DNA of 64,000 bases from Candidatus Bathyarchaeota archaeon (GTDB lineage Archaea; Thermoproteota; Bathyarchaeia; Bathyarchaeales; Bathycorpusculaceae). A model generated the notes under the pieces. That model saw only the letters and a list, made by a program, of their open reading frames with translations. It was not told where the DNA came from and made no database searches. Made by a program: the position numbers and the translations under genes. Where the stretch lies: NCBI GenBank assembly GCA_963833575.1, contig CAWHXY010000006.1, positions 32,001-96,000 on the forward strand. Direction: 5' to 3'. Of this stretch, positions 3,445 through 60,069 are shown piece after piece. Positions within the stretch are counted from its first letter, which is position 1, and the number at the start of each line of letters is the position of its first letter.

Positions 3445-4698
3445 TTATTCCGCTTTTCTATATCTTAAGAGAGCAGCAAAACCGCCCAAAGCCGTAAGCT
3501 GCGCTTTTTCTTTAGAATCAGTAGATATTACCTCGACTCTTGCGTTTGTCTGTGAAGTCGCATCTTCTAACACGTCTATTATGTCTTTCTCCTCCAATTC
3601 ATAATCAAGGGCGCCGCATTTCTCGCAAGGGCTTGAAATCATTTCCTGCACCGCATGAACTTTATCCGATGTACGAAACATCTGCTCTTTTGATAGCCCG
3701 CATTTTTTACAAACTGCAACAGTTTCGACCATATCTATGGTATCTGTCACTAAAGCAACCTCCACTTCACCCTTTTTAATAGCCATCAACACTGGATCAA
3801 ATCCGTAAATGGCTAAGCCGTCCTGCTTGCCAATAGCTGCCATTAGCCGCTGCACAATTCGCCGCTCATCAGGCGAACACATATTTTGCCGTATCTCAGC
3901 TGATTTATCCAGCATCTCCCTCACGCCATCTTTGCCCGCGGATTGCGTATCAACTACAGTCACAACCGAATTTTGAAGCTCATAATTTAGGTAATCGCCC
4001 CTCAAGAAATCTTCTTTAGTGGTGCCTGGACCACCAACAATTAACGCCGTAACTTTATGGTCTTCGAGAAACGCCTTTGCTGCATGCTCCGCAACCCTGT
4101 GGAAAAAATAGGTGACTGACATATCGCGTTCTCTTTCGTATCTTCTTTGGCTTGACCCGCCTTTACCTGACTTTCCATGAATGCCCGAGGCTATATTTTC
4201 AATTAATTCGAATTGTTCACCTTTGATTATTCCGAAACTGGCCTCCTTTGAATCCACGGCAACAAATCCCACATCTTTTTGGTTTCTCAACATTTCTCGC
4301 AGTAGTTCTAAATGGAAGTGGTCGTCAACTTGGTATAGATAAGTGGTTATTGGCGCTGGCGGGATAACTTCTTCGATACTCAAAACATTGTTTTCTAACT
4401 CACTTGCGAATACCCCAGCAAATATCGCTAGCCCATTGGTGGGAACTTGTTTCTGAAGCTTCAGATACTGAAGTAAATTTTTGGTTGCGTCTTCTATGCG
4501 ATTCTTAACGACTTTAACATTTTGAGAAGTTGTAGAGACGCAGTCAAGCTCTTTTTTGAGGGATGCCACAACCTCATCTATGAACGTCTCATGGGGTATA
4601 TATAACGAAATAAACTCGATTCCTCTTCCCTTTTGCTCAGATATGCATGCTATGAGCTTCCTCAGTTTGTGCTGTTTCACGGAATCAGAAGTTGCCAT
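3445..4698 (-). CDS. peptide chain release factor aRF1 paralog, divergent (GGSSQ, no NIKS), C-terminal Zn ribbon
   Basis: GRGIEFISLYIP, NGLAIFAG, YLY...FH, IVGGPG.TK, LGGFAALLRY; ATG at 4698 preferred. Confidence 0.85.
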   Translation of the reverse strand: MATSDSVKQHKLRKLIACISEQKGRGIEFISLYIPHETFIDEVVASLKKELDCVSTTSQNVKVVKNRIEDATKNLLQYLKLQKQVPTNGLAIFAGVFASELENNVLSIEEVIPPAPITTYLYQVDDHFHLELLREMLRNQKDVGFVAVDSKEASFGIIKGEQFELIENIASGIHGKSGKGGSSQRRYERERDMSVTYFFHRVAEHAAKAFLEDHKVTALIVGGPGTTKEDFLRGDYLNYELQNSVVTVVDTQSAGKDGVREMLDKSAEIRQNMCSPDERRIVQRLMAAIGKQDGLAIYGFDPVLMAIKKGEVEVALVTDTIDMVETVAVCKKCGLSKEQMFRTSDKVHAVQEMISSPCEKCGALDYELEEKDIIDVLEDATSQTNARVEVISTDSKEKAQLTALGGFAALLRYRKAE

Positions 4699-31250: not shown

Positions 31251-31328
31251 GCCCAGGTAGTATAGTTCGGTCCAGTATATGCGGCTGTCGCCCGCAGGAC
31301 CCGGGTCCGAATCCCGGCCTGGGCGCCA
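31251..31328 (+). tRNA. tRNA-Asp(GUC), CCA encoded
   Basis: acceptor GCCCAGG/CCTGGGC, anticodon arm TGCGG-CTGTCGC-CCGCA, T arm CCGGG-TCCGAAT-CCCGG, discriminator G, then CCA. Confidence 0.93.
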
Positions 31329-42248: not shown

Positions 42249-42659
42249 TTACTGCTTTTCCAATATTTTCTTTATTTCGTCCATAATGTTTGAGAAATCT
42301 GTTTCTTTTTCGGGTTTCATGCCTTTCTTGGAGACTTTCGCGATTGTTTCATAGCCTTTTCCTGATAATCTTTTTTCCATATTTTTCATAGTTCGTTCGT
42401 TTCCGAAAGCGCGGTATGTACAGAATAAGATAACTTTTTTGCCTTGGGTTTGAGGCATATTCTCTATGAAAGCTATGGTTTCTTTTGCTGGGCTGGCGCC
42501 TTCCACGGGAGTGCCCAGGATTAGGAGGTCACAGTTTTCGATTGTTGGAGGCTGGGTTGAGGCTAAATCATAGATTGGAGTTTTTGTTGCGTCAGCTATC
42601 GCTTGGGCTAGTCGTTTGGTGTTTCCAGTTCTTGAAAAATAGATTATGCATGAATTCAT
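42249..42659 (-). CDS. flavodoxin-family protein
   Basis: YFSRTGNTKRLA, LILGTPV. Confidence 0.88.
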   Translation of the reverse strand: MNSCIIYFSRTGNTKRLAQAIADATKTPIYDLASTQPPTIENCDLLILGTPVEGASPAKETIAFIENMPQTQGKKVILFCTYRAFGNERTMKNMEKRLSGKGYETIAKVSKKGMKPEKETDFSNIMDEIKKILEKQ

Positions 42660-42845
42660 ACTCTGAGATTGGTTTTGCCAAGATAAATAACCTTCTATAT
42701 AGTTGTTCTACTATGTTTTCCGTTTGTATTTGGTTTTGATCTGGAGAAAGTAAGCCAACGGTTGTTTCTCTGTTGCTTAATAGAAGAGTTTCGAAAGTCC
42801 ACTACAATTAGAAGCGAGATGCGCCAACTCTACTATTTACCTTTG

Positions 42846-42889
42846 AAAAAACGTGGAATGGTGATGTCTCCACTCGATGGAGGGTTCAA
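42846..42889 (+). repeat. dispersed ~40-bp repeat, copy 1
   Basis: aaaaaacgtggaatggtgatgtctccactcgatggagggttcaa. Confidence 0.65.
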
Positions 42890-42977
42890 CTGCACCAAAT
42901 GGCACATTAACTAAATTATTTGTAAGGTAAAAGTCGCAATACTTAAAAATCATTTTAGTTAAAAAGCCTCTACCCAG

Positions 42978-43325
42978 GTGAATACTATGGATTTCTGCCC
43001 AGAATGCGGATCGATACTTCAAACAACAAAAAAGGGCTCTTCCACACTTAGATGCCCAAAATGCAAATACGAAAAAACAATGGAACATAAAGAATCAAAC
43101 AAAAAAATAAGCCTACCACTTGGCAAAGCAGCTGAAATCGCCATAATAGACCAAAGCAAAGAAGCAATGCTTAGACAACTCCCAACAATCCATATGGTCT
43201 GCGAAAAATGCGGAAACACCGAAAGCGAAACTTGGAACGTCGAGGCTGCAGACGAAACTATCCATTCAACAATTACATTCTTCAGATGCACAAAATGCAA
43301 AACCACCAGAAGAGAATCTGGATAA
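42978..43325 (+). CDS. transcription factor S (TFS/RPB9-like) paralog
   Basis: FCPECG...CPKC, CEKCG...AADE...FFRCTKC. Confidence 0.82.
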   Translation: MNTMDFCPECGSILQTTKKGSSTLRCPKCKYEKTMEHKESNKKISLPLGKAAEIAIIDQSKEAMLRQLPTIHMVCEKCGNTESETWNVEAADETIHSTITFFRCTKCKTTRRESG

Positions 43326-43363
43326 ACCAAATAACTCACTTATAAGATAGGGCTGATTTTAAG

Positions 43364-43406
43364 AAAAAAGCATGCGCGGGGATGTTTCCACTGGAGTGGG
43401 GGTCAA
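43364..43406 (+). repeat. dispersed ~40-bp repeat, copy 2
   Basis: aaaaaagcatgcgcggggatgtttccactggagtgggggtcaa. Confidence 0.65.
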
Positions 43407-43490
43407 TCCGATTCCCTGCTTAGATTGCTAGAGGATTTGAGTTCAACCCAATCCAAAAATATTGAGTCAAGAAACGTGGACTAATTGCAG

Positions 43491-44732
43491 TCAAGAGATT
43501 CTTTTTAGAAGTAATAGTGTTGCTGTAACCGCTATCAGTAAGATGATTATTGTTATTGGAGCTATTTCAGGTATTGTTGGAGAAGGCAAAGGTGGGGAAG
43601 GTTGAGGAACTGTAATTGAACCAAACGCATAAACGTTGTTATAATCTGACCCAATATAGAGTACGCCGTTGGCGATGGAGGGAAAAGACTCCACAGGGCT
43701 GCCAGTTGTGTAGCTCCACATTTTGCTACCTTTTGCAGCATCCAAAGCATACACATTATTATCGCATGAGCCAACATAGACCACACCGTTTGCAACAGTG
43801 GGGCTTGAATCGATCTTATCGCCAGTCTTGTAGCTCCATACTTTGTCACCGGTTGCGGCATTAAAAGCGTAGAGGTAGCCATCATCAGACCCAATATACA
43901 CCAAACTGTTGGCGACCGCGGGAGAAGACTCTACGGTGCCACCTGTTAGGTAACTCCACATTTTATTGCCCGTTTTGGCGTCTAATGCATAAACCGAGTC
44001 GCCTGACCCAAAATAGACGATGCCGTTTGCAACAGCAGAAGAAGAGTACAGAGGACCAATCGTTGTAAAATTCCATAATTTGGTACCGGAGGCAGCGTCT
44101 ATGGCATAAGCGGTGTCATACGAGTTAACATAGAGCACGCCGTCAACAAATGCTGGATTAGTGTACACAAAGTTGCTAGTTTTAAAGCTCCATGTCATAG
44201 AGCCCGATGAAGCGTCCAAAGCATACACATAGTGGTCATTTGACCCAAAATAAACCACGTTATTGACGACAATAGGCGAAGAATACACCTCGCCTCCAGT
44301 TGTAAAATTCCATTTTAAGCTACCATTATCAGCGTTTAACGCGTACACATCATGATCACGTGAACCAAAATAAATCACTCCATTACTAATCGATGCAGAA
44401 GACTTTATCGGACCCGCAGCCGTGTAACTCCAAATTTTGGCGCCGGTTGCCGCATTCAAAGCGTAAAAATTGGAATCTTGAGAACCCACATATACTACTC
44501 CATCGACTACTGCGGGAGAACAGTATTCTATTGAATTGCCTGTCGGGAAAATCCACAGAGATTGGTTTGTGAGCGGCCCAGTTGATGTAGTATAGCCTGT
44601 GTGAGCTAAATCATGATGGAATGTGGGCGTCCAATCTACGGTAGATTGTTGAGCCATAATTTTTGGTGCAAAAGCTGAAAACATCAATAAACCTAAAGTT
44701 CCCAGAAGGATTATTGATTTTTTGTGGTAAAT
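43491..44732 (-). CDS. PQQ-like (BamB-type) beta-propeller surface protein with PEF-like sorting signal
   Basis: about 8 repeats SSP.V.NG.VY.GS.D..VYALDA..G...W; IPEI + TM + KR tail; full signal peptide needs an ATT start at 44732 (track start 44687). Confidence 0.88.
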   Translation of the reverse strand: MYHKKSIILLGTLGLLMFSAFAPKIMAQQSTVDWTPTFHHDLAHTGYTTSTGPLTNQSLWIFPTGNSIEYCSPAVVDGVVYVGSQDSNFYALNAATGAKIWSYTAAGPIKSSASISNGVIYFGSRDHDVYALNADNGSLKWNFTTGGEVYSSPIVVNNVVYFGSNDHYVYALDASSGSMTWSFKTSNFVYTNPAFVDGVLYVNSYDTAYAIDAASGTKLWNFTTIGPLYSSSAVANGIVYFGSGDSVYALDAKTGNKMWSYLTGGTVESSPAVANSLVYIGSDDGYLYAFNAATGDKVWSYKTGDKIDSSPTVANGVVYVGSCDNNVYALDAAKGSKMWSYTTGSPVESFPSIANGVLYIGSDYNNVYAFGSITVPQPSPPLPSPTIPEIAPITIIILLIAVTATLLLLKRIS

Positions 44733-44829
44733 TTTTTCCCTCTCCTTTAGCTGGTTGGATTATCCAACCATTAATATAAGTTTTCTCCAAAAACCCCCAC
44801 CTACTTTTACGATTCACACTTTGTGATTG

Positions 44830-44869
44830 AAGGGAGATGTGGACGTGTCTCCACTGATGTGTGTGTTAA
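44830..44869 (+). repeat. dispersed ~40-bp repeat, copy 3 (degenerate)
   Basis: aagggagatgtggacgtgtctccactgatgtgtgtgttaa. Confidence 0.5.
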
Positions 44870-44927
44870 ATTCAATTTCCTGCCAAAATTACCAGAGAGC
44901 GGGAATCAACACTGAGCAGCAGATCCT

Positions 44928-44969
44928 TGTTCCATAATAGGAACAAAATGTTCCATGAGTAGAACTAAA
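44928..44969 (+). promoter_or_regulatory. tandem palindromic operator upstream of a surface-protein gene
   Basis: TGTTCCataataGGAACA then TGTTCCATGAGTAGAACTAAA. Confidence 0.65.
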
Positions 44970-45012
44970 GAGTAGCCAATCATTTAGTTATTCATTAGAG
45001 AGAAACGATAAA

Positions 45013-45639
45013 ATGCGCAATTGGGGAAAAGCTATCACTTTACTGCTTGTTGCCTTCTTCTTAACATTTGCACTCTTAATTCCTTCAATGGCTAATGCAC
45101 AAACAACGAGCCAATACAGCGGACGTAGTTTTATGAGCAATAGTCCTGTGTCCTTCACTCTAACAATGAATAGCCCAACTGACCAAGATACTTATTCCAA
45201 TAAGATGATTCTTGACTTTACCATCAACTGGACAGCGGCTCCTGAGTTACTACCAATTGACAATTGGACTTTTGATGAAAAATGCGCCTACAGTATAGAT
45301 GAAAATTCAGCTATTGCTGTACCACCAAATAGTTCCTTTATTGCTATCCCCTTCCCGTGGAGTTATTGGTTTTCAACTTCTGTTGACATCTCTAACTTAA
45401 CAAATGGTTATCACAAAATATCAATCCTTGCTCTCATGTACTTTGGCCCAAACACTCTTTTCAATCAGTCCTCAATTCCAGTTGCATTCTTAGTCCAAAA
45501 CCCAACTCATAATTCAACTCCTACTCCTGCTGTTCCAGAGTTTCCAACATTAATTCTAATAATCATATTTCTTCTCACCACAACTTTACTGGCTACAATT
45601 ATGATTGAGAGAAAACAATCAATAGGATGGATAATTTGA
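45013..45639 (+). CDS. secreted Ig-like protein with PEF-CTERM
   Basis: signal peptide ending ANA, SNLTNGYHKI, PTPAVPEFP + TM. Confidence 0.8.
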   Translation: MRNWGKAITLLLVAFFLTFALLIPSMANAQTTSQYSGRSFMSNSPVSFTLTMNSPTDQDTYSNKMILDFTINWTAAPELLPIDNWTFDEKCAYSIDENSAIAVPPNSSFIAIPFPWSYWFSTSVDISNLTNGYHKISILALMYFGPNTLFNQSSIPVAFLVQNPTHNSTPTPAVPEFPTLILIIIFLLTTTLLATIMIERKQSIGWII

Positions 45640-46020
45640 ACAAAAAAGCACTTTTAGCACTTGTAATCATTACAATTGTAGTTGTGAGTGTGTTTGTTTA
45701 CGGTAACATTATCTTAAACAAGTTCCCCAATATCCTTTTTCACAATCACAGTCATCACCAAATCCAGCATCGTCGTTAAGCCCTACTCCAACACCTTTAG
45801 CATATATAGTTTTAAATCCAAACAATCAAATTGTTAATTTATCCCTGAATCAGCAAACAGATTTTAATGTTACAATTGCCGAGAAGGGATATTACAATTT
45901 ACAATTTCCATGCACTATAACAGTTATTTCCAACACTGGTAGTTCAACTGAGTTAGGTCCCTATTCAAGTTACGGAACATATACTATTAATTTTGAAGGA
46001 TATCTGTACATTATTTTGTT
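45636..46020 (+). pseudogene. frameshifted, apparently truncated membrane-anchored secreted protein
   Basis: TTG-NKKALLALVIITIVVVSVFVY; shift at T5 run 45736-45740; then SQSQSSPNPASSLSPTPTP...; runs into the convergent HTH gene. Confidence 0.55.
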
Positions 46021-46332
46021 TTACTCTTTGCTTTGCAATTTATCGTTGTTGAGAATTCTTAGTGCTTGTAGCAGCAGTTCTGTCTTTGAATTCTCTCTAT
46101 TTAGCCAAATAAGTCGCACGTTCCCGTAGCGTTTTTCTTGAATAATGTCTTCTTTTACTAAAACAAGCAAATTAGCATTAACCTGATTATAAGTACTGTT
46201 TACCTTGCGAACAAGCTCCATAACATTAGCTGAATGAACAGTCAAGAGAAATCTTATGATTTTGCGTCTGCACGAAGAAGAAATTAACTGTTCAAGCTCC
46301 AAATAGTTCCTCCCAAAGTTACTGACCGTCAT
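46021..46332 (-). CDS. winged-helix (ArsR-like) DNA-binding protein
   Basis: SSSCRRKIIRFL, NVMELVRKVNSTYNQV...L...II.E...G.VRLI.LN. Confidence 0.75.
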   Translation of the reverse strand: MTVSNFGRNYLELEQLISSSCRRKIIRFLLTVHSANVMELVRKVNSTYNQVNANLLVLVKEDIIQEKRYGNVRLIWLNRENSKTELLLQALRILNNDKLQSKE

Positions 46333-46618
46333 TGGCGTTTTTGCTTATAACTCTCAGCACGAAACAGCTGTATTTCATAGTAGAGGGATGAGTGTAAGTG
46401 ATCAACATTAAAATAAACCAATTTTGTTTGATCATAATCGTTTATTTTCCTAAACTGTAGTTTCACTTTAAGTCACCTCTCTGTTTCCGAAACTATTCGT
46501 CTTCCTTTAATGTCTAATCCGTGAATGTGCTGCATAACTAAAGCTACCTGCTTTAGAGGCGTGTCACCGCCTAGCCCTAAGGGAAGGGCAGAAAGAGAAC
46601 AAGAAAGGCAAAGGAAGC

Positions 46619-47347
46619 GTGGTTCAAAAATTGAATAAAATACAAATCACAATATTTGCGGTTGCACTTGGTGCATTAATGTTAGCAAGTCCAATGGCTT
46701 TACAGATCGTATCTGCAGGACAAGGTTATGCTGATCACAAATACGGGGTTAGCTACAGTTATGAAGATTGTTCACAGCCTAATAATGAACCAAGTTACAT
46801 GGAGTGCGTGCACACTGACCTCTATGCTCCTGATGACATGATGGTCGGAGTTTACGTGAATACCAACTACCAACTCTACAATAGCAACGATTATAATTAT
46901 GGAAACTTTTGGTTTAGTGCGCAAGCAGGCTACAACTCCGCCACAGTGAGTATCATGCCACCGATGGGAATGACATTTGATCTTGACTACAGCAAATCCA
47001 CTGCATATCGCCTCATTTATTATGATTATTCTTCCGGAACATGGACAAATGGCTACTTGTTCAATGGAAAATGGGCATATCTCAAAGATGATAACCAGAA
47101 TATTTACAGTGCTTATGTCGTCAGCGACCAGTATAACAGCGCGCAGAACAATTTGAATTTTGGTCTTCGCAATTCAGCCGCAGGCATGACTCAGGAAGCA
47201 TTCTACTATAACAACAATCATAACACAGTATACTATCACTATGCTCAGACTCAAGTTCCTTCGGGCAACAACCCCCCTCCAGCGGGAATTTTGGGTTATA
47301 ATTTCCTGACCGCCCATCCATATAGTCAAGGTGGCGATTGGAGTTGA
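46619..47347 (+). CDS. secreted Tyr/Asn-rich hypothetical protein
   Basis: signal peptide, aromatic/Asn-rich beta-type body. Confidence 0.7.
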   Translation: MVQKLNKIQITIFAVALGALMLASPMALQIVSAGQGYADHKYGVSYSYEDCSQPNNEPSYMECVHTDLYAPDDMMVGVYVNTNYQLYNSNDYNYGNFWFSAQAGYNSATVSIMPPMGMTFDLDYSKSTAYRLIYYDYSSGTWTNGYLFNGKWAYLKDDNQNIYSAYVVSDQYNSAQNNLNFGLRNSAAGMTQEAFYYNNNHNTVYYHYAQTQVPSGNNPPPAGILGYNFLTAHPYSQGGDWS

Positions 47348-48192
47348 CAAAACGAAAGAAACTCAGCGAATCTCTATTTTCCAATAATAAAGGAAAGATT
47401 GCGCTAAGCTTGATTATTGCACTCATGCTTACCATTCCAATCTCGCTCGCTTTAGCCACAACTTCTCCTCCATCTACTACCCAAACAGACATGCCCACTG
47501 CCACTCATGAAGTTGCATCCTCAAATACACAGTTCCAAATACACGTTGCATATGCGTATGTGGGGCCGGCTCCATCCAACGTAAGCTCGTATTTCGACCA
47601 AGCAAGGAACACTACAATGCGACTGATCAGCCAATATCCAACTTCAGTTCTATTGAATATCTCATGCTTACCGAGTGCTCAAATTGCTGGTTGCGATGCT
47701 GTAGTTGAAGTTTATGGAGTCAAAATTGGCACTGACACTGGGCATTCGGAATATGATGCTTATTTTATAGGAACCAACTATAATCCCTCGTTTTCAAATG
47801 CATCCTTATCATCCTTGATCCAATATGTACCCAGCTCGTATAACGCTAGTCTTTACACCACTATTGCAGGCAACTTTAAATTCAATTGGAATAGCAATGC
47901 ATCATTCTTAACCGACCCTATTGGTACCAGTACGTTGTATATGGCTTCTGACACCAGTTCATTAGGACTATTCGGTGCAGGAGAGCCAAATGCTGTCTCA
48001 GTTACTGTATACAGAATTGGTTACATAACGATAGCAAACGGATCAGTTACCGTCTTTGAAGACCCCTTAAACAAAACTCCCACAGACATGGTACTGCTTG
48101 GCAATTATAACAACGGTTTTCTCTATAACAATCTTATGCCCTCAGCTCAACTTCCACAAGAAAACTTATTCAAGGCCATTGCACATCCGTAG
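47338..48192 (+). CDS. secreted or membrane-anchored hypothetical protein
   Basis: N-terminal TM/signal, S/T linker; overlaps the upstream gene. Confidence 0.7.
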   Translation: MELTKRKKLSESLFSNNKGKIALSLIIALMLTIPISLALATTSPPSTTQTDMPTATHEVASSNTQFQIHVAYAYVGPAPSNVSSYFDQARNTTMRLISQYPTSVLLNISCLPSAQIAGCDAVVEVYGVKIGTDTGHSEYDAYFIGTNYNPSFSNASLSSLIQYVPSSYNASLYTTIAGNFKFNWNSNASFLTDPIGTSTLYMASDTSSLGLFGAGEPNAVSVTVYRIGYITIANGSVTVFEDPLNKTPTDMVLLGNYNNGFLYNNLMPSAQLPQENLFKAIAHP

Positions 48193-48306
48193 GACGGAAT
48201 CCTATGGTTTCAAAATATCCCTTTTTTGTTTGTTAATCCTATTGACTGTTGAGATTTTCAATAAACTAAAAAGTACTAACAATATAATTATCGAGCAATT
48301 TGGATG

Positions 48307-48358
48307 TGTTCCAGCTTTTAAACAATCGTGGGTTCTCTGTTCCATGAATAGAATTAAA
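48307..48358 (+). promoter_or_regulatory. tandem palindromic operator, copy 2
   Basis: TGTTCCagcttttAAACA then TGTTCCATGAATAGAATTAAA. Confidence 0.6.
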
Positions 48359-48393
48359 TACCTTGCTAAGATGCTAATAATCTAAGGATAGGT

Positions 48394-49095
48394 ATGGCTA
48401 GTGCGAATTTCTCCAAATTTTTCGTCTACGCCTTAATCGTTTCAATGGCGGGCCTGCTTTTGGTTGGGTCTGCAAATGCTGAAACTGTTGAAACTGCTCC
48501 GCCAGCAAGTAATATTCCTGTACCCTCTGTTCCACAGTTCATAGTTATGTTTTTTGAAATGGGTTTCTCACCGATGACAGGCGGCGACAAAGTGCCAGTG
48601 ATAAACTTTACCTTTAAAAGCCAACCTTTTACCTCTTACACTGACAAAAACGCAAATAAGATTAATCTATATTATCTCATAGATTGGAAACGCCCTTCTG
48701 ATAATTCATGGATAGAATACCCAATTTCTCTCTCTTCAAATACTTCAAACTATTTTCAACAATTAGAAGGCACAACATATATGATTACTACTTTTTCGAT
48801 TTATTGGAATGACCCGGTAATTCTGTCTCAAGGTGGTCCGGTAGAATTTAAAGTCGCAGCTCTTATAGGGTACCAAACACCAGGTACCCCCTCGATCATA
48901 GGCGAAACAAGCGGTTGGACTGGCACACAAACAATAATCGTCCCTGTAAGTTCAAGTTCGCCAACACCAATAGCCAACGGTAGTTTAGCCTTAACACTTG
49001 CAATTTCTATCATTGTTGCGATTATAGCACTTGTCATTACTCTGTTAATTTATAGAAGGCATCGAAAAACCGCTAATGTACCTAAAGTAATCTGA
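48394..49095 (+). CDS. secreted protein with C-terminal membrane anchor
   Basis: signal peptide, PSVPQF, QPFTSY, ETSGWTGTQTI, TM + RRHRK. Confidence 0.75.
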   Translation: MASANFSKFFVYALIVSMAGLLLVGSANAETVETAPPASNIPVPSVPQFIVMFFEMGFSPMTGGDKVPVINFTFKSQPFTSYTDKNANKINLYYLIDWKRPSDNSWIEYPISLSSNTSNYFQQLEGTTYMITTFSIYWNDPVILSQGGPVEFKVAALIGYQTPGTPSIIGETSGWTGTQTIIVPVSSSSPTPIANGSLALTLAISIIVAIIALVITLLIYRRHRKTANVPKVI

Positions 49096-49107
49096 TAGAT
49101 TCTTTGG

Positions 49108-49160
49108 TGTTCCAACTTGGAACAACCTATTAGCTACCTGTTCCATGAATAGAACTAAAA
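49108..49160 (+). promoter_or_regulatory. tandem palindromic operator, copy 3
   Basis: TGTTCCaacttGGAACA then TGTTCCATGAATAGAACTAAAA. Confidence 0.65.
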
Positions 49161-49208
49161 GGTTAGTCACTTGTAGTTATTTGAGGGTAAACTGGAACGA
49201 AGAAGTCA

Positions 49209-49949
49209 GTGAGCTTAGTCCTAATCTTTCTATTGCTAACAGTTGCAAGTTCTTTTTCACTATTAGCAAATGCTCAAACAGCTACTTCCATACCGTCTAC
49301 ACCTACATTATCAGTTCCAGAATTCACCATTAACTTTGTTAATTTTTCCTATTTTACTCCACCAATTGCCTCCTTCAATCCTTATACAGGAAAAAATGTT
49401 GTACAATCAGGCTATTATGTCGAAAATGACAGTATAGAGTTGATAATTAAAAATCAGCCGTTTATTTCCTATATCTCAAATGGTCAAAATATTTCACTAT
49501 ACTATAATGTCCGCTTCAAAATGCTTAACTCTGAAAACTGGATAAACATATTTAATGGAGCACCATACCCACCCCAATCAAACGCAAACTTCACGGCACA
49601 TGACTTCTTTGGGTCAAATTACACTTACCAAATCGGCAAACAACAGATGAGTCTTTTCCCCAATGATTCAGTTGATTTTCAAGTTCAAGCCCAAGCAGGA
49701 TACTTCAAGTTAGAACCCTATATGGTCGCAGGAAACACCTCACCGATGGGATTCATCGATGCTTTTACTGCTGTAATATCAAGCGGTTGGAGCAACACAC
49801 AAACAGCAACCATACCTTCAAGTTTTGGTACTTCAAATCTCATAATTCCAGAATTATCATGGCTGATAATTTTGCCAATGTTTATCTTCATGCTCTCTGT
49901 TGCAATTGTACTAAGGTATCAAAAAACATTAAGTTCTAAAATCTTTTAA
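49209..49949 (+). CDS. secreted protein, paralog of 48394-49095, PEF-like signal
   Basis: SVPEF, NQPFISY, VDFQVQA, SSGWSNTQT, IPEL + TM. Confidence 0.75.
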   Translation: MSLVLIFLLLTVASSFSLLANAQTATSIPSTPTLSVPEFTINFVNFSYFTPPIASFNPYTGKNVVQSGYYVENDSIELIIKNQPFISYISNGQNISLYYNVRFKMLNSENWINIFNGAPYPPQSNANFTAHDFFGSNYTYQIGKQQMSLFPNDSVDFQVQAQAGYFKLEPYMVAGNTSPMGFIDAFTAVISSGWSNTQTATIPSSFGTSNLIIPELSWLIILPMFIFMLSVAIVLRYQKTLSSKIF

Positions 49950-49968
49950 GCGTTGTAGCTTATGAAAG

Positions 49969-50259
49969 GTGACCAGAATGACGATAATTATCAAGATTGG
50001 TAGACCCACTATACAGATTTTTTGGGCAATAATTGCTTTATTAGGTGTTGTTTTAATAAGTTCTGGATTTTTCAATGCCATTAATGGGTTAACTAATTTT
50101 GGCAGCATAACTTTAGCTAACACGGGGGCTCTTTCACATGTAAGCGGTGGCATTGTCATATTTATTCTTGGGTTGGTAGTCGTAGCGGCAGGTTATCTTG
50201 GAATTCGAGGAAGAATAATAATAACTACGAGCGAAGACACAAAACAGAACCCTTCTTAG
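49969..50259 (+). CDS. small membrane protein (2 TM)
   Basis: two hydrophobic helices. Confidence 0.5.
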   Translation: MTRMTIIIKIGRPTIQIFWAIIALLGVVLISSGFFNAINGLTNFGSITLANTGALSHVSGGIVIFILGLVVVAAGYLGIRGRIIITTSEDTKQNPS

Positions 50260-50263
50260 AACT

Positions 50264-50310
50264 AAAAAAAGGGAAATGCGGATGATGTTTCCACGGGAGA
50301 GAGGGTTCAA
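50264..50310 (+). repeat. dispersed ~40-bp repeat, copy 4
   Basis: aaaaaaagggaaatgcggatgatgtttccacgggagagagggttcaa. Confidence 0.65.
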
Positions 50311-50641
50311 GTCTTACCTATGTAATGAGAAATAGTTGTTAAAAACTTCTCCATAAGGTACACAAGTACCTACAGAGCGATACCGAGGTACCTCAATAAT
50401 GGAAGTCACGAATAATCCATTACAAAAGCGCCAACAGGATTTCAAACTAATCTTGTAAATCCTTAAAAAATACGGCTAAACTAAAATCTAAACGAATACC
50501 TGAATAAACCCTAAATCAAAAATGCAATCTGAATCGCAAAGTAAGAATTGGCCAGAAATGCTATCAATAACAACTTCTGTCCAAGGCAACAAGATCTAAT
50601 TTTAATAGCTAGAAATTAGTATTTGTTTTGAGCGAAAAAAT

Positions 50642-52411
50642 ATGGATTACGATGTTATCGCTGAAGCTTACGAGAAAATTGAGGCAACAACGAAACGCTT
50701 AGAAATGACAGATTTACTTGTTGAGTTGCTGAAAAAAACGCCTAAAGACGTCATTGCAAAGGTTGTTTATTTAACTCAGGGCAAATTGTACCCAGATTTC
50801 ATGGGTGTGGAAATGGGCATAGCTGAAAAACTTGCGGTAAAAGCCCTAGCCCGAGCGTCTGGACAAAGCGAAAGCGTTATTCTAACTGAGCTGCAGAAAA
50901 GCGGGGACATCGGCGAAACATCAGAGAAACTTTTGATTAAACGCAAACAATCCACTTTCTTCACAAGAAAGCTCACGGTTGAGCATGTTTATGAGACTCT
51001 TGATAAGATGGCTAAAACCTCCGGTTCAGGCGCTGTAGACACGAAAATGGCGCTTCTCTGTAGCCTATTAACTGATGCGTCGCCTAAAGAGGCAAAATGG
51101 ATTATTCGCACCGTAACAGCCAACCTGCGGCTAGGCATCGCAGACATGACTGTCCTCGATGCATTAGCAATAGCGTATGCCGGTGGAAAAGAGGCTCGCG
51201 AACTCGTCGAACGTGCTTACAGCATTTCTTCTGATCTAGGCAGAGTTGCAGACGTAGTTGTCGAGAAAGGTTTGGAAGGAATTAAAAAGTTTCAAGTCAT
51301 AGTTTTTGAGCCTATAAGACCAATGCTTGCAGAACGGTTAGCTTCGCCAGAGGAGATTTTAGAGAAATTCGGCGGCAAATGCGTAGCTGAATACAAATAC
51401 GATGGCGAACGGGTGCAGGCCCACAAAAAAGACGGCAAAGTGATGCTGTTTTCGAGGCGTTTAGAGAACATTTCCAGCCAATATCCTGACGCAGTTGACT
51501 TAATTAAAGAAAAATTTTCTGCGAAAGAATTGATCTTAGAAGCTGAATGCGTGGCGATGGATTTAGAAACGGGTGATATGCGCCCCTTCCAAGAGTTAAT
51601 GCATCGAAGACGCAAATATGGCATTGAAGACGCCATAGGACAATATCCCATCTCACTATTTCCATTTGACTTACTATATGTTGACGGTAAAGATCTGACT
51701 CTTGAACCTCTGCCTCTACGACGCAAAGCGCTAGAAAAGATAGTGCAGAAAAGTGACCGCGTAACTCCTGCAGTTCAAAAACTGGTTAAGAGTCCAAAGG
51801 AACTTGAGGATTTCTTTGAGGAAGCCATTGCGGAAGGCTGTGAGGGCTTGATGTGCAAATCCGTCGCTAAGGATTCAGTTTACCAGGCGGGAAGTCGAGG
51901 TTGGCTTTGGATAAAATATAAGCGTGATTATAAAAGCGAAATGACTGATACCGTGGATCTTGTGGTTGTTGGAGCGTTCCATGGTAGAGGAAAACGTGTG
52001 GGAGCATATGGGGCTTTACTTTTAGCTACTTACAACGATGAAAAAGACACCTTTGAAACCGTAACTAAATGTGGCACAGGCTTCACAGATAAAGACCTTG
52101 CAACTCTGCACGAAACGCTTCAGAAACACATTATTCCCAAAAAGAACTCCCGTGTCGTATCAATGTTAGAAGCGGATGTTTGGTTTGAACCCAGCTTGGT
52201 GCTTGATATTTTAGGCGCCGAAATCACCCTAAGCCCTATTCACGCATGCGCCATGGATTCCATACGCAAAGGAGCCGGATTGGCGATCCGTTTTCCACGT
52301 TTCACAGGCAAATACCGAACCGACAAAAGCGCAGAAGACGCGACCACTTCAAAAGAAATCGTAGAAATGTACCAAGGACAACTCAAAAAAATTAGCACAG
52401 AATCAGCATGA
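50642..52411 (+). CDS. lig: ATP-dependent DNA ligase
   Basis: EYKYDGER, EGLMCK, WIKYKRDY, RFPRF...R.DK. Confidence 0.96.
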   Translation: MDYDVIAEAYEKIEATTKRLEMTDLLVELLKKTPKDVIAKVVYLTQGKLYPDFMGVEMGIAEKLAVKALARASGQSESVILTELQKSGDIGETSEKLLIKRKQSTFFTRKLTVEHVYETLDKMAKTSGSGAVDTKMALLCSLLTDASPKEAKWIIRTVTANLRLGIADMTVLDALAIAYAGGKEARELVERAYSISSDLGRVADVVVEKGLEGIKKFQVIVFEPIRPMLAERLASPEEILEKFGGKCVAEYKYDGERVQAHKKDGKVMLFSRRLENISSQYPDAVDLIKEKFSAKELILEAECVAMDLETGDMRPFQELMHRRRKYGIEDAIGQYPISLFPFDLLYVDGKDLTLEPLPLRRKALEKIVQKSDRVTPAVQKLVKSPKELEDFFEEAIAEGCEGLMCKSVAKDSVYQAGSRGWLWIKYKRDYKSEMTDTVDLVVVGAFHGRGKRVGAYGALLLATYNDEKDTFETVTKCGTGFTDKDLATLHETLQKHIIPKKNSRVVSMLEADVWFEPSLVLDILGAEITLSPIHACAMDSIRKGAGLAIRFPRFTGKYRTDKSAEDATTSKEIVEMYQGQLKKISTESA

Positions 52412-59256: not shown

Positions 59257-60069
59257 TTAGTCCATTCCATTTTTTCTTTCTTTTGTTTTTATCTTTTGGG
59301 CTTTTTGCCATAATAAGTCAAAATAGTTTTGTGATAGATCAACTATGCTTCTGTTGTTTGACCATAAGGTTGGGTATGGAAAAGGCGTATCAATCACAGA
59401 AGTACTAAGTAGCATTTCTTTCCGATCCCATACACTAAAACCTACTGTGGGAGACTGCTGAGTTAGTTTTAGGGCAAAATTTGGGTATTTCATTAGCATT
59501 TCAATTGGTTCTCCCAAATGTTCGTTCCCCTCTGGTTTTGGCATGATTATTCTAAAAGCTACTTTTCTGGCAAGTGCCTCTTCCAAAATAAGTGAGTAAT
59601 TTGAGACCCAAGCAATCAATCTCTTTCGTAATGCCAGAAAGCAAATTATTTTCTTGGCATTTATGACCATTTTTTCAGCTTTGACGTAAACAGCTTCTCT
59701 GTTTTTGATAAGCAAGAACTGAAATTCTTCAGAAAGCTCCTCGTTTTCACTGTTTCGTTGGAAGTTTTGAGTTAAAAAGTATGCTTTCTGTTGAAGTTCC
59801 GCGGTTTTCGCTATTCTTATTTGCATTAGATTGGAAACGCACTTTTCTATGGATATTGCATGGAACTGTTCGGGCTTTGATATTGTTTTCTCAACGAGTC
59901 CGGCCTCCTCTAACTGGATCAGCACTCTATAAACATCCGGTCTGGCAACTCCTGAAACTAAAGATATTTCCTGTGCTTTTAGATTGCGAGATTTTACTAG
60001 TGACAGGTAGACTTTTGCCTGTGAAGTAGTCAAACCAAGTTCTGATAATGTGGAAACATTATCGTCCAA
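59257..60069 (-). CDS. TrmB-family transcriptional regulator
   Basis: LGLTTSQAKVYLSL, RPDVYRVL..L...GLVE, WDRKE, YFDLLW; TTG at 60069 (track start 60126). Confidence 0.85.
   Translation of the reverse strand: MDDNVSTLSELGLTTSQAKVYLSLVKSRNLKAQEISLVSGVARPDVYRVLIQLEEAGLVEKTISKPEQFHAISIEKCVSNLMQIRIAKTAELQQKAYFLTQNFQRNSENEELSEEFQFLLIKNREAVYVKAEKMVINAKKIICFLALRKRLIAWVSNYSLILEEALARKVAFRIIMPKPEGNEHLGEPIEMLMKYPNFALKLTQQSPTVGFSVWDRKEMLLSTSVIDTPFPYPTLWSNNRSIVDLSQNYFDLLWQKAQKIKTKERKNGMD

Follow-up and report, generated by a model that had tools for sequence, protein, structure and literature searches.

The 64,000-nt stretch analysed here, termed the window throughout, belongs to a Candidatus Bathyarchaeota archaeon (contig CAWHXY010000006.1, positions 32,001 to 96,000) and contains four copies of an intergenic repeat that divide a strain-specific island into blocks of genes. 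The genome, designated G000, comprises 2.75 Mb on 8 contigs. The window equals C6:32001-96000, and window coordinates are C6 coordinates minus 32000. The island spans ~7.9 kb (~42705..50594, edges approximate, taken by eye from the alignment), contains all four copies and became apparent when the interval between a flavodoxin gene and the gene for an ATP-dependent DNA ligase (lig) was compared with relatives. Its left neighbour is the conserved flavodoxin gene (42249..42659, minus strand; Pfam PF12641 and PF00258), which is syntenic in relatives. On the right follows lig (50642..52411, plus strand), with a TAATTTTAATAG promoter box at ~50595 and a promoter region that aligns with those of relatives. 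Orthologues of lig with 73-92% identity are found in 24/25 genomes of the genus. All relatives of the lig gene carry Bathyarchaeia/Bathyarchaeota labels, of the Bathy-6-like kind. We compared the region upstream of lig in 14 genus relatives. In ten of them no substantial gene separates the flavodoxin gene from lig, the island being absent there, and none of the 14 has a repeat copy in the flavodoxin-lig interval. In G003 the spacer measures ~110 nt, as opposed to ~7.9 kb in G000.

The copies bound three blocks that encode neither PF00589 integrases nor transfer genes according to a Pfam scan. Block 1 carries the gene for a TFS/RPB9-like zinc-ribbon protein of 115 amino acids (42978..43325, plus strand; PF02150, E 5.9e-06) and block 2 that for a PQQ-type beta-propeller protein of 398 amino acids (43491..44687, minus strand; PF13570, PF13360, PF01011). 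In block 3 (45013..50259) the lists of open reading frames (ORFs) give seven entries, one of which (103 amino acids) is on the minus strand. Several of the encoded proteins have signal-peptide-like N-termini and a C-terminal hydrophobic segment followed by a basic tail, and none of the seven has a Pfam match at E<=1e-4. An earlier note on this DNA had described the cargo between the copies as unrelated and of mixed orientation, and this is what we find. Its labels for the TFS-like and the PQQ propeller proteins are backed by Pfam; the supposed winged helix-turn-helix protein (46021-46332) lacks a Pfam match.

The repeat belongs to a large family. A profile built from nine copies and then iterated (nhmmer, E<=0.01) retrieved 27 copies genome-wide, and R1, a sequence-only covariance model derived from 25 copies, gave 29 matches in G000 at the same threshold. 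The copies cluster at C6 74.8-82.3k (the four window copies), at C8 21.9-27k, 77-80k and 157-164.5k, and at C7 627.7-631.8k, in addition to seven singletons. When 41 genomes of one order were searched with R1, matches were obtained in 30: in G000, in 20 of the 24 other genomes of the genus and in nine of the 16 from other families of the order. The profile scan of the genome and of related Bathyarchaeia that the earlier note had proposed thus yields 27-29 copies in G000 and matches in 29/40 other genomes. Relatives contain up to 17 matches per genome, and some of the matches outside the genus are single and weak.

The full composite has a length of ~105 nt and consists, in this order, of an A-run, the stretch GGGAAATGCGGGTGAyATCTCCAC, ~8 variable bases, GGGTTCAA, which corresponds to the T-loop of a tRNA, and a variable 3' part. 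A second conserved module (…AAATyGCCGGAGGGTTTGAGTTCAACCC) closes the composite in about half of the G000 copies. In an alignment of 97 distinct copies (27 from G000 and 70 from relatives) the A-run and the first conserved stretch are 80-99% conserved per position, the A-run being the most conserved feature (90-99%), and the part after the T-loop is not conserved. The T-loop heptamer is missing from 24/97 copies. By inspection, the RYYYAAC/GTTRRRY ends of integron attC sites do not occur in the 97-copy consensus, in line with what the earlier note had stated. Hallmarks of miniature inverted-repeat transposable elements were likewise sought by inspection only: the A-run GGGG... on the left and ...GAGTTCAACCC on the right do not form terminal inverted repeats, and target-site duplications are missing from the flanks in the 27-copy alignment. 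A short ORF starting in the conserved (G)TGATG was considered and dismissed; the best-scoring copy reads ATG TCT CCA TAG and other copies lack the ATG.

All four window copies lie on the plus strand. Copy 1 (42838..42901; nhmmer match C6:74838-74901) comprises A-run, arm (as we term the first conserved stretch) and T-loop. Its 3' part, TTCAA-CTGCACCA, looks like the acceptor end of a tRNA-Leu with an internal deletion when compared by eye with the tRNA list of the genome, and orthologues of copy 1 are located upstream of the same TFS-like gene in G020 and G009. Copy 2 (43356..43462; profile match 43356-43430) consists of A-run, a diverged arm, the core (to 43430) and the second conserved module GAGGATTTGAGTTCAACCC. 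On its left, G020 and G009 match G000 at 88-90% identity as far as the A-run; on its right the sequences are unrelated. One DNA contig from a ~90%-identical relative joins 43335 to 43434 without copy 2, a weak hint given by a single contig with a 30-nt side. Copy 3 (44830..44927; nhmmer C6:76830-76894, E 3e-10) has the most diverged arm (GACGTGTCTCCAC), followed by core and second module, and the promoter-like region downstream of it is homologous to a region at C8:159352. In copy 4 (50252..50323; nhmmer C6:82252-82323, E 2e-13) the A-run directly follows the stop codon of a 96-amino-acid ORF and precedes arm and T-loop; a tRNA 3' part is not recognisable in this copy. The ~400 nt upstream (49860-50262), which span the whole gene for this 96-amino-acid membrane protein, are 100% identical to C7:628390-628800, the two stretches belonging to two surface-protein clusters, and the identity stops at the A-run. 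Such sequence identity suggests recent gene conversion or cassette exchange.

Two modules adjoin some of the copies. To the left of copy 4 (~50225-50262) as well as of the copies at C7:628400, C7:360443, C8:161869 and C8:157452, ~35 further bases (…AGCAAAGAAACAAAACAGAACCCTTCTTAGAAC) are conserved, even where the upstream ORFs are unrelated, and in three of these five places they encode a common C-terminus, …KETKQNPS, with the stop codon. A promoter-like module, AAGTCAAGAAAnnTTGACTAA…CAGTCAAGrAA…CTTTTAT, is conserved downstream of copy 2 (43463-43520) and of the copies at C8:157452, C7:627791 and C7:631772, ahead of surface-protein genes. In the case of copy 2, the module and the 3' end of the convergent PQQ gene overlap.

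The earlier note had reported four intergenic copies in one orientation, and the profile search confirms all of them. A degenerate core pattern, with at most one mismatch allowed, detected three of the four and one unrelated site at 60050 on the minus strand; these four matches compare with 0.50 expected, and 0/100 shuffles reached four. Copy 3 escapes this pattern and is found by the profile. The E-values of the window copies are partly circular because all four were among the profile seeds, and independent support comes from the non-seed copies across the genome and from the copies in relatives. The proposed repeat of ~40 bp is real and longer than described, copies 2 and 3 extending to ~43462 and ~44927, respectively.

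The variable 3' parts reveal where the cores come from. We compared them with the 37 tRNAs of G000, scoring 13 positions after the T-loop, and designate loci and copies in relatives by L numbers. Identity at 13/13 positions was found to tRNA-Leu(tag) for L070_2436 and L081_2474, to tRNA-Ala(tgc) for L022 and L074_7239, to tRNA-Leu(cag) for L021_2191 and to tRNA-Pro(ggg) for L025_1491; L078_1208 agrees with tRNA-Cys at 12/13 positions. For L044, comparison by eye gives a 24-nt match to tRNA-Leu(tag) that extends from GTTCGAAT to CCA. The 5' half-stem before the T-loop is nearly constant (GAGGG, GGAGG, GTGGG), whatever comes after it. Among the 73/97 copies with a T-loop heptamer, five T-stem pairs are possible in three copies, four in 23, three in 22, two in 19 and one in six (mean ~3.0 of 5), compared with a mean of 4.9 of 5 in 30 real tRNAs. 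The T-stem is thus often unpaired because the 5' half-stem stays nearly constant as the 3' strand follows the source tRNA, and this pattern places the boundary between constant and variable sequence at the T-loop. The inverted repeat G[CT]GG[AG]-N6-11-TCCAC noted earlier does exist, within GCGGGTGAyATCTCCAC, the most conserved stretch of the 97 copies. Its proposed role as crossover core finds no support, since it sits in the conserved arm, and the constant/variable boundary and most breakpoints are situated further right, in the tRNA-derived core between the T-loop and the acceptor 3' end.

Genuine tRNA genes head several arrays of copies. ARAGORN detected tRNAs in eight of 63 loci scanned in relatives, and in six of these eight co-oriented copies follow downstream of the tRNA. 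tRNA-Leu(tag) seeds L064 in G021 (four copies downstream), L071 in G013 (two copies) and L076 in G012 (five copies), tRNA-Ala(tgc) seeds L067 in G003 (two copies) and L028 in G001 (one copy), and tRNA-Ile(gat) seeds L077 in G029, a member of another family (three copies). At least one copy in each of these six arrays bears the 3' end of the seeding tRNA itself, exactly over 24-25 nt in L067 and L077 and with 1-3 differences elsewhere. The remaining two loci do not follow the pattern: L024 has a convergent tRNA-Lys, and L051 a tRNA-Asp and no copies. G000 itself has a copy with a decayed Leu-type tail 2674 nt behind tRNA-Leu(tag), and a decayed copy lies 323 nt behind tRNA-Ala(tgc). Six loci of relatives and two places in G000 combine an intact tRNA with a partial copy of it that is displaced to the opposite end in direct orientation. 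A second T-loop-like fragment (GGTTCAAATCC…) was noticed 30-35 nt behind a copy at L067 (~2480-2510) and in L073 (minus strand, near 3560); to judge by their sequence, these fragments look as if they were stacked scars of further recombination events. For the window island, a tRNA-Asp at 31251 was considered as seed and rejected, as it is 11.5 kb upstream and separated from the island by syntenic core genes.

Copies also mark places where related genomes differ, as the earlier note had expected of recombination sites. The TFS unit (42861-43370), which begins within copy 1 and reaches the A-run of copy 2, recurs in G020 (87.5% identity over 511 nt) and in G009 (86.4% over 515 nt), each time with a different right-hand partner: the next junction has a tRNA-Pro(ggg) tail in G020 and a tRNA-Cys-like tail in G009, and in G000 the second module and the PQQ gene follow. 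In G012 a flank abuts tRNA-Leu(tag) directly, and the corresponding flank in G021 is found behind a copy ~710 bp further on, with a GNAT gene in between; both joints have ACCATTATG in common. Empty sites in relatives are therefore seen twice, at the flavodoxin-lig site and at tRNA-Leu(tag) in G012 versus G021. Both the window island and the ~710-bp unit are present in some genomes and absent from others.

The earlier note had placed the recombinase elsewhere and had asked for a tyrosine recombinase beside a copy. None is encoded in the arrays scanned, and in two mobile elements the arm adjoins a PF00589 integrase gene. The first, L089, is a 4198-nt contig of G031 on which the 5' part of tRNA-His (minus strand), a 39-nt direct repeat, an integrase region, the arm and the repeat again (38/39) follow each other. 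The integrase has 430 amino acids and is accompanied by five small ORFs (ASCH, PadR-like). The core of L089 is the 5' end of tRNA-His with its upstream flank and not a T-loop, which leads us to conclude that one arm serves different cores. The second, L176, is a 13.3-kb contig from IMG/VR with ParB-like and HerA-like genes, where a copy is located immediately upstream of the gene for a 315-amino-acid integrase. This protein is 34% identical to the L089 integrase (E 8e-57) and 27% identical to the integrase encoded at C6:132750-133925 in G000. Searches of IMG/VR with an exact 21-mer of the arm gave 0 loci and with a 17-mer 16 loci. Of these 16, four (L176 included) reach E<=0.01 with the model, and in three the match extends over most of the model length. 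Furthermore, an antisense integrase gene is present 1.3-3 kb upstream of the arm in L090, in L091 and at C6:129.69k/132.75k.

Some further integrase genes of G000 deserve mention in their own right. A 476-amino-acid integrase ORF (L087, C2:256-1686) runs into a tRNA-Gln gene encoded on the other strand (c1631-1704); such an arrangement, in which the attachment site falls within the integrase gene, is SSV-like. A zinc-ribbon integrase of 374 amino acids (L086, C1:152-1276) adjoins tRNA-Cys and appears to stop before the catalytic tyrosine. C8 ends, in its last ~90 nt, with the C-terminal part of an integrase (…GFEYVC…FRKRK) that belongs to the arm-associated family, and several G000 contigs appear to break at mobile elements.

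We consider it likely that the repeats are attachment-site (att-type) junctions of integrative cassettes that target tRNA genes. Each junction would be made by a tyrosine recombinase that joins an element-borne arm, composed of the A-run, the first conserved stretch, a few variable bases and a GAGGG-type half-stem, to a core that is a copy of the 3' portion of a tRNA gene, i.e., the T-loop, the 3' strand of the T-stem and the 3' strand of the acceptor stem. In some copies a second element-borne arm would be present on the other side. Circular DNA units with such a site could recombine with the tRNA gene or a pre-existing chromosomal site, and repeated events would pile up units one behind another, all in the orientation of the tRNA and with one junction between neighbours, so that the displaced original tRNA 3' end would come to lie at the far end of the array. 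Most units lack an integrase gene and would be moved in trans or be remnants of decay. The candidate enzyme family is that of the tyrosine integrases adjoining the arm in L089 and L176, which would bind the arm, and integrase-less units may still move today. The core of the earlier proposal, recombination sites that bound mobile gene blocks and a recombinase encoded elsewhere, agrees well with the tRNA-seeded arrays, the empty and occupied sites, the cassette with three partners and the arm beside an integrase gene in two elements.

Several observations weigh against this interpretation. There is no integrase in or beside the window island, nor did a Pfam scan find one among 76 proteins from the window blocks and the arrays of eight relatives, the cargo of which comprises GNAT, HicA, DUF4258/DUF2283, flavodoxins, nitroreductase, an ABC transporter, Kelch/PQQ propellers, TBP, Alba and a glycosyltransferase. 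G000 has five PF00589 genes, none by an array and two against tRNA-Cys and tRNA-Gln at contig starts. Clean flanking repeats are found in only one integrase-bearing element, L089; L090, L091 and the C6 element of G000 (integrase 132750-133925) have none, at least none of >=14 nt in the latter. In a phyletic profile of two integrase families against repeat presence the co-occurrence is weak, the L085-type being concordant in 28/40 genomes, where the queries match a broad superfamily and the genomes are kin and not independent. Most G000 copies carry the 3' part TTCAATCCGATTCCCCACC, for which the best of the 37 tRNAs agrees at only 9/13 positions, and most G000 arrays, including the one in the window, have no adjoining tRNA. 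The island extends ~140 nt beyond copy 1 on the left and ~280 nt beyond copy 4 on the right, its edges being outside the copies; together with the lack of an adjacent tRNA gene this implies that its arrival needed a second event or a secondary site. Homology breakpoints are scattered over the repeat, from the A-run to beyond the T-loop, and the only junction common to G021 and G012 is at the very end of the tRNA; these breakpoints do not define an exchange point. The arm of orthologous copies is more diverged (~60-65%, by eye) than the adjoining cargo (~87-93%). Finally, assembled contigs of four sequencing runs, placed on the window, include no circular or excised form.

Part of this evidence would fit an account in which the copies are inert scars: old integrations into tRNA genes left partial tRNA copies and element ends, which segmental duplication, gene conversion and rearrangement then scattered, and the blocks are not individually mobile now. 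Many copies have decayed, as is evident from the lost heptamers and the mutated arm of copy 3, the arrays lack integrases and the island edges are off the copies. In addition, paralogous gene clusters on C6, C7 and C8 have repeat-containing flanks in common, and duplication therefore explains some copies. The strong conservation of the arm over 97 copies and several families of the order is, however, hard to reconcile with neutral scars. The TFS unit with its three partners, where the sequence changes inside the repeat, and the single ~710-bp unit by which G012 and G021 differ precisely at the end of the tRNA speak against scars as well. We regard this explanation as unlikely, albeit the most serious of the competitors.

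The remaining explanations invoke RNA. On the strand read from the A-run, the repeat might form a tRNA-like structure that is recognised by tRNA-processing enzymes and serves intergenic transcripts as a signal for processing or stability, in the manner of the t-elements of plant mitochondria and Haloferax. The perfect T-loop (TTCAAAT/TTCGAAT), the copies that end in ...CTGCACCA, a recurring CTCC-loop-GGAG hairpin and, in a few copies (L039, C7_60660), complementarity of 5' and 3' ends (both by eye) would be in keeping with such a signal, and crude longest-ORF calls place about half of the copies behind a co-oriented gene. The same calls give a mixed orientation of neighbouring genes overall. 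Neither ARAGORN nor Rfam, at the gathering threshold or at E<=10, reports a tRNA or another family at the copies, and the T-stem is paired at only ~3.0 of 5 positions. RNAalifold returns an empty structure for the 97-copy alignment on both strands and essentially nothing for a crude 12-copy alignment, and the four window copies fold no better than mononucleotide shuffles (z +0.08 to -1.5). All this makes a tRNA-like signal very improbable. Hardly any probability remains for a small RNA gene or terminator on the opposite strand, whose transcripts would end in a U7 tract, the reverse of the A-run. Oligo-T is an archaeal termination signal, the A-run is the most conserved feature (90-99%), and in convergent contexts it would end the opposite-strand gene. 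In 8/27 contexts, though, both neighbours are on the A-run-first strand and there is nothing to terminate; a conserved promoter upstream on the opposite strand was not seen by eye, a consensus fold is missing, and both the tRNA identity of the 3' parts and the tRNA-seeded arrays are left unaccounted for. Minus-strand small RNAs ending in U-tracts had been the alternative offered in the earlier note, and folding lends them no support. The A-run could nevertheless serve as a terminator alongside att function. C/D-box small RNAs and K-turns were also considered and discarded, as box spacing and D box are not conserved (by eye). The contigs of the only RNA library found, X2, cover 46558-48081; they miss all four copies and are silent on transcription of the repeat.

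Two further features of the island concern its cargo. At 46558-46607, just upstream of an ORF for 242 amino acids, ~45 nt (GGCGTGTCACCGCCTAGCCCTAAGGGAAGGGC...) are common to several RNA-library and DNA contigs that diverge on both sides; one RNA-library contig covers 46569-47205 in block 3. From its recurrence the stretch might represent a leader, or a motif close to the promoter, that is conserved among paralogous surface-protein genes. Between the start of the PQQ gene and copy 3, a near-perfect palindrome, TTAGCTGGTTGGAT-TA-TCCAACCATTAA (44747-44774), which surfaced as a spurious mir-34 match, could be an operator.

If the repeats are attachment-site junctions, the consequences reach beyond the window. 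Bathyarchaeia are abundant uncultured archaea of sediments and peat, and little is known about their acquisition of genes. The motif, which occurs across an order and in up to 29 copies per genome, offers a practical marker for delimiting imported DNA and a guide to mobile cargo such as surface propellers, flavodoxins, GNATs and toxin-antitoxin-like pairs. It also helps to choose an integrase and DNA substrates with which site-specific recombination in the class could first be tested biochemically. Should integrase-less units indeed move in trans, they would constitute an archaeal counterpart of integron-like cassette capture with tRNA tails as recombination core. A bolder version, to which we give limited credence, is that Bathyarchaeia of this order run an integron-like chromosomal cassette platform, in which a dedicated tyrosine integrase family acting in trans captures, stacks and reshuffles small cassettes devoid of integrase genes by means of ~105-nt sites with two conserved arms and a tRNA-derived core, entry occurring at several different tRNA genes and at existing junctions throughout the genome.

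In the literature searched, supplementary files aside, we did not find the motif described. The kind of system is known, however, and the earlier suggestion of an undescribed one does not hold: the repeats fit the type of tRNA-targeting tyrosine integrases with tandem accretion, to which tycheposon-like islands and cis-mobilisable elements (CIMEs) belong. As described in PMC6563490, integrated mobile genetic elements of Thaumarchaeota encode tyrosine integrases and are bounded by attL/attR direct repeats at tRNA genes. Archaeal elements of this sort resemble the present case in their integration at tRNA genes, the direct repeat of a tRNA part at the far end, the re-use of sites that gives rise to arrays and the PF00589 enzyme. 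In contrast, most units here are small (0.3-8 kb) and without integrase, one 45-nt arm occurs with cores of several tRNAs (Leu, Ala, Ile, Pro, Cys-like and the 5' end of tRNA-His), and up to 29 junctions are present per genome, many of them far from any tRNA. Islands built by tycheposons in Prochlorococcus, where according to the preprint each tRNA has its own integrase clade (bioRxiv 10.1101/2020.12.28.424599), are similarly tRNA-seeded, with scattered partial tRNAs, older material pushed distally and mostly integrase-free cargo. The differences lie in the archaeal host and the single arm family combined with several tRNAs.

CIMEs are integrase-less, att-flanked DNA that accretes in tandem at the att sites of elements of the ICESt1/ICESt3 type. 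The window blocks are like them in that integrase-less DNA is situated between functional-looking att sites and in tandem with other units. They differ in having no known conjugative partner, in much longer arrays and in much smaller units, whose mobilisation is putative. According to PMC9668308, in the main text of which the word 'tRNA' occurs 0 times, the attC sites of archaeal integrons are canonical, and such sites also form clusters that lack an integrase. Rows of small cassettes with unrelated cargo, each with its own recombination site, and a recombinase often encoded off the contig are features common to integrons, attC clusters and the arrays reported here. Unlike integrons, the latter have no R/L boxes (RYYYAAC/GTTRRRY) and no conserved single-strand fold, their core is tRNA-derived, and entry is at tRNA genes and not at attI; the cargo is of mixed orientation, and no integrase heads the arrays seen. 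What sets the bathyarchaeal junctions apart is the combination of a ~45-nt arm common to an order with cores from at least six tRNA species, small and numerous integrase-less units, and junctions far from tRNAs.

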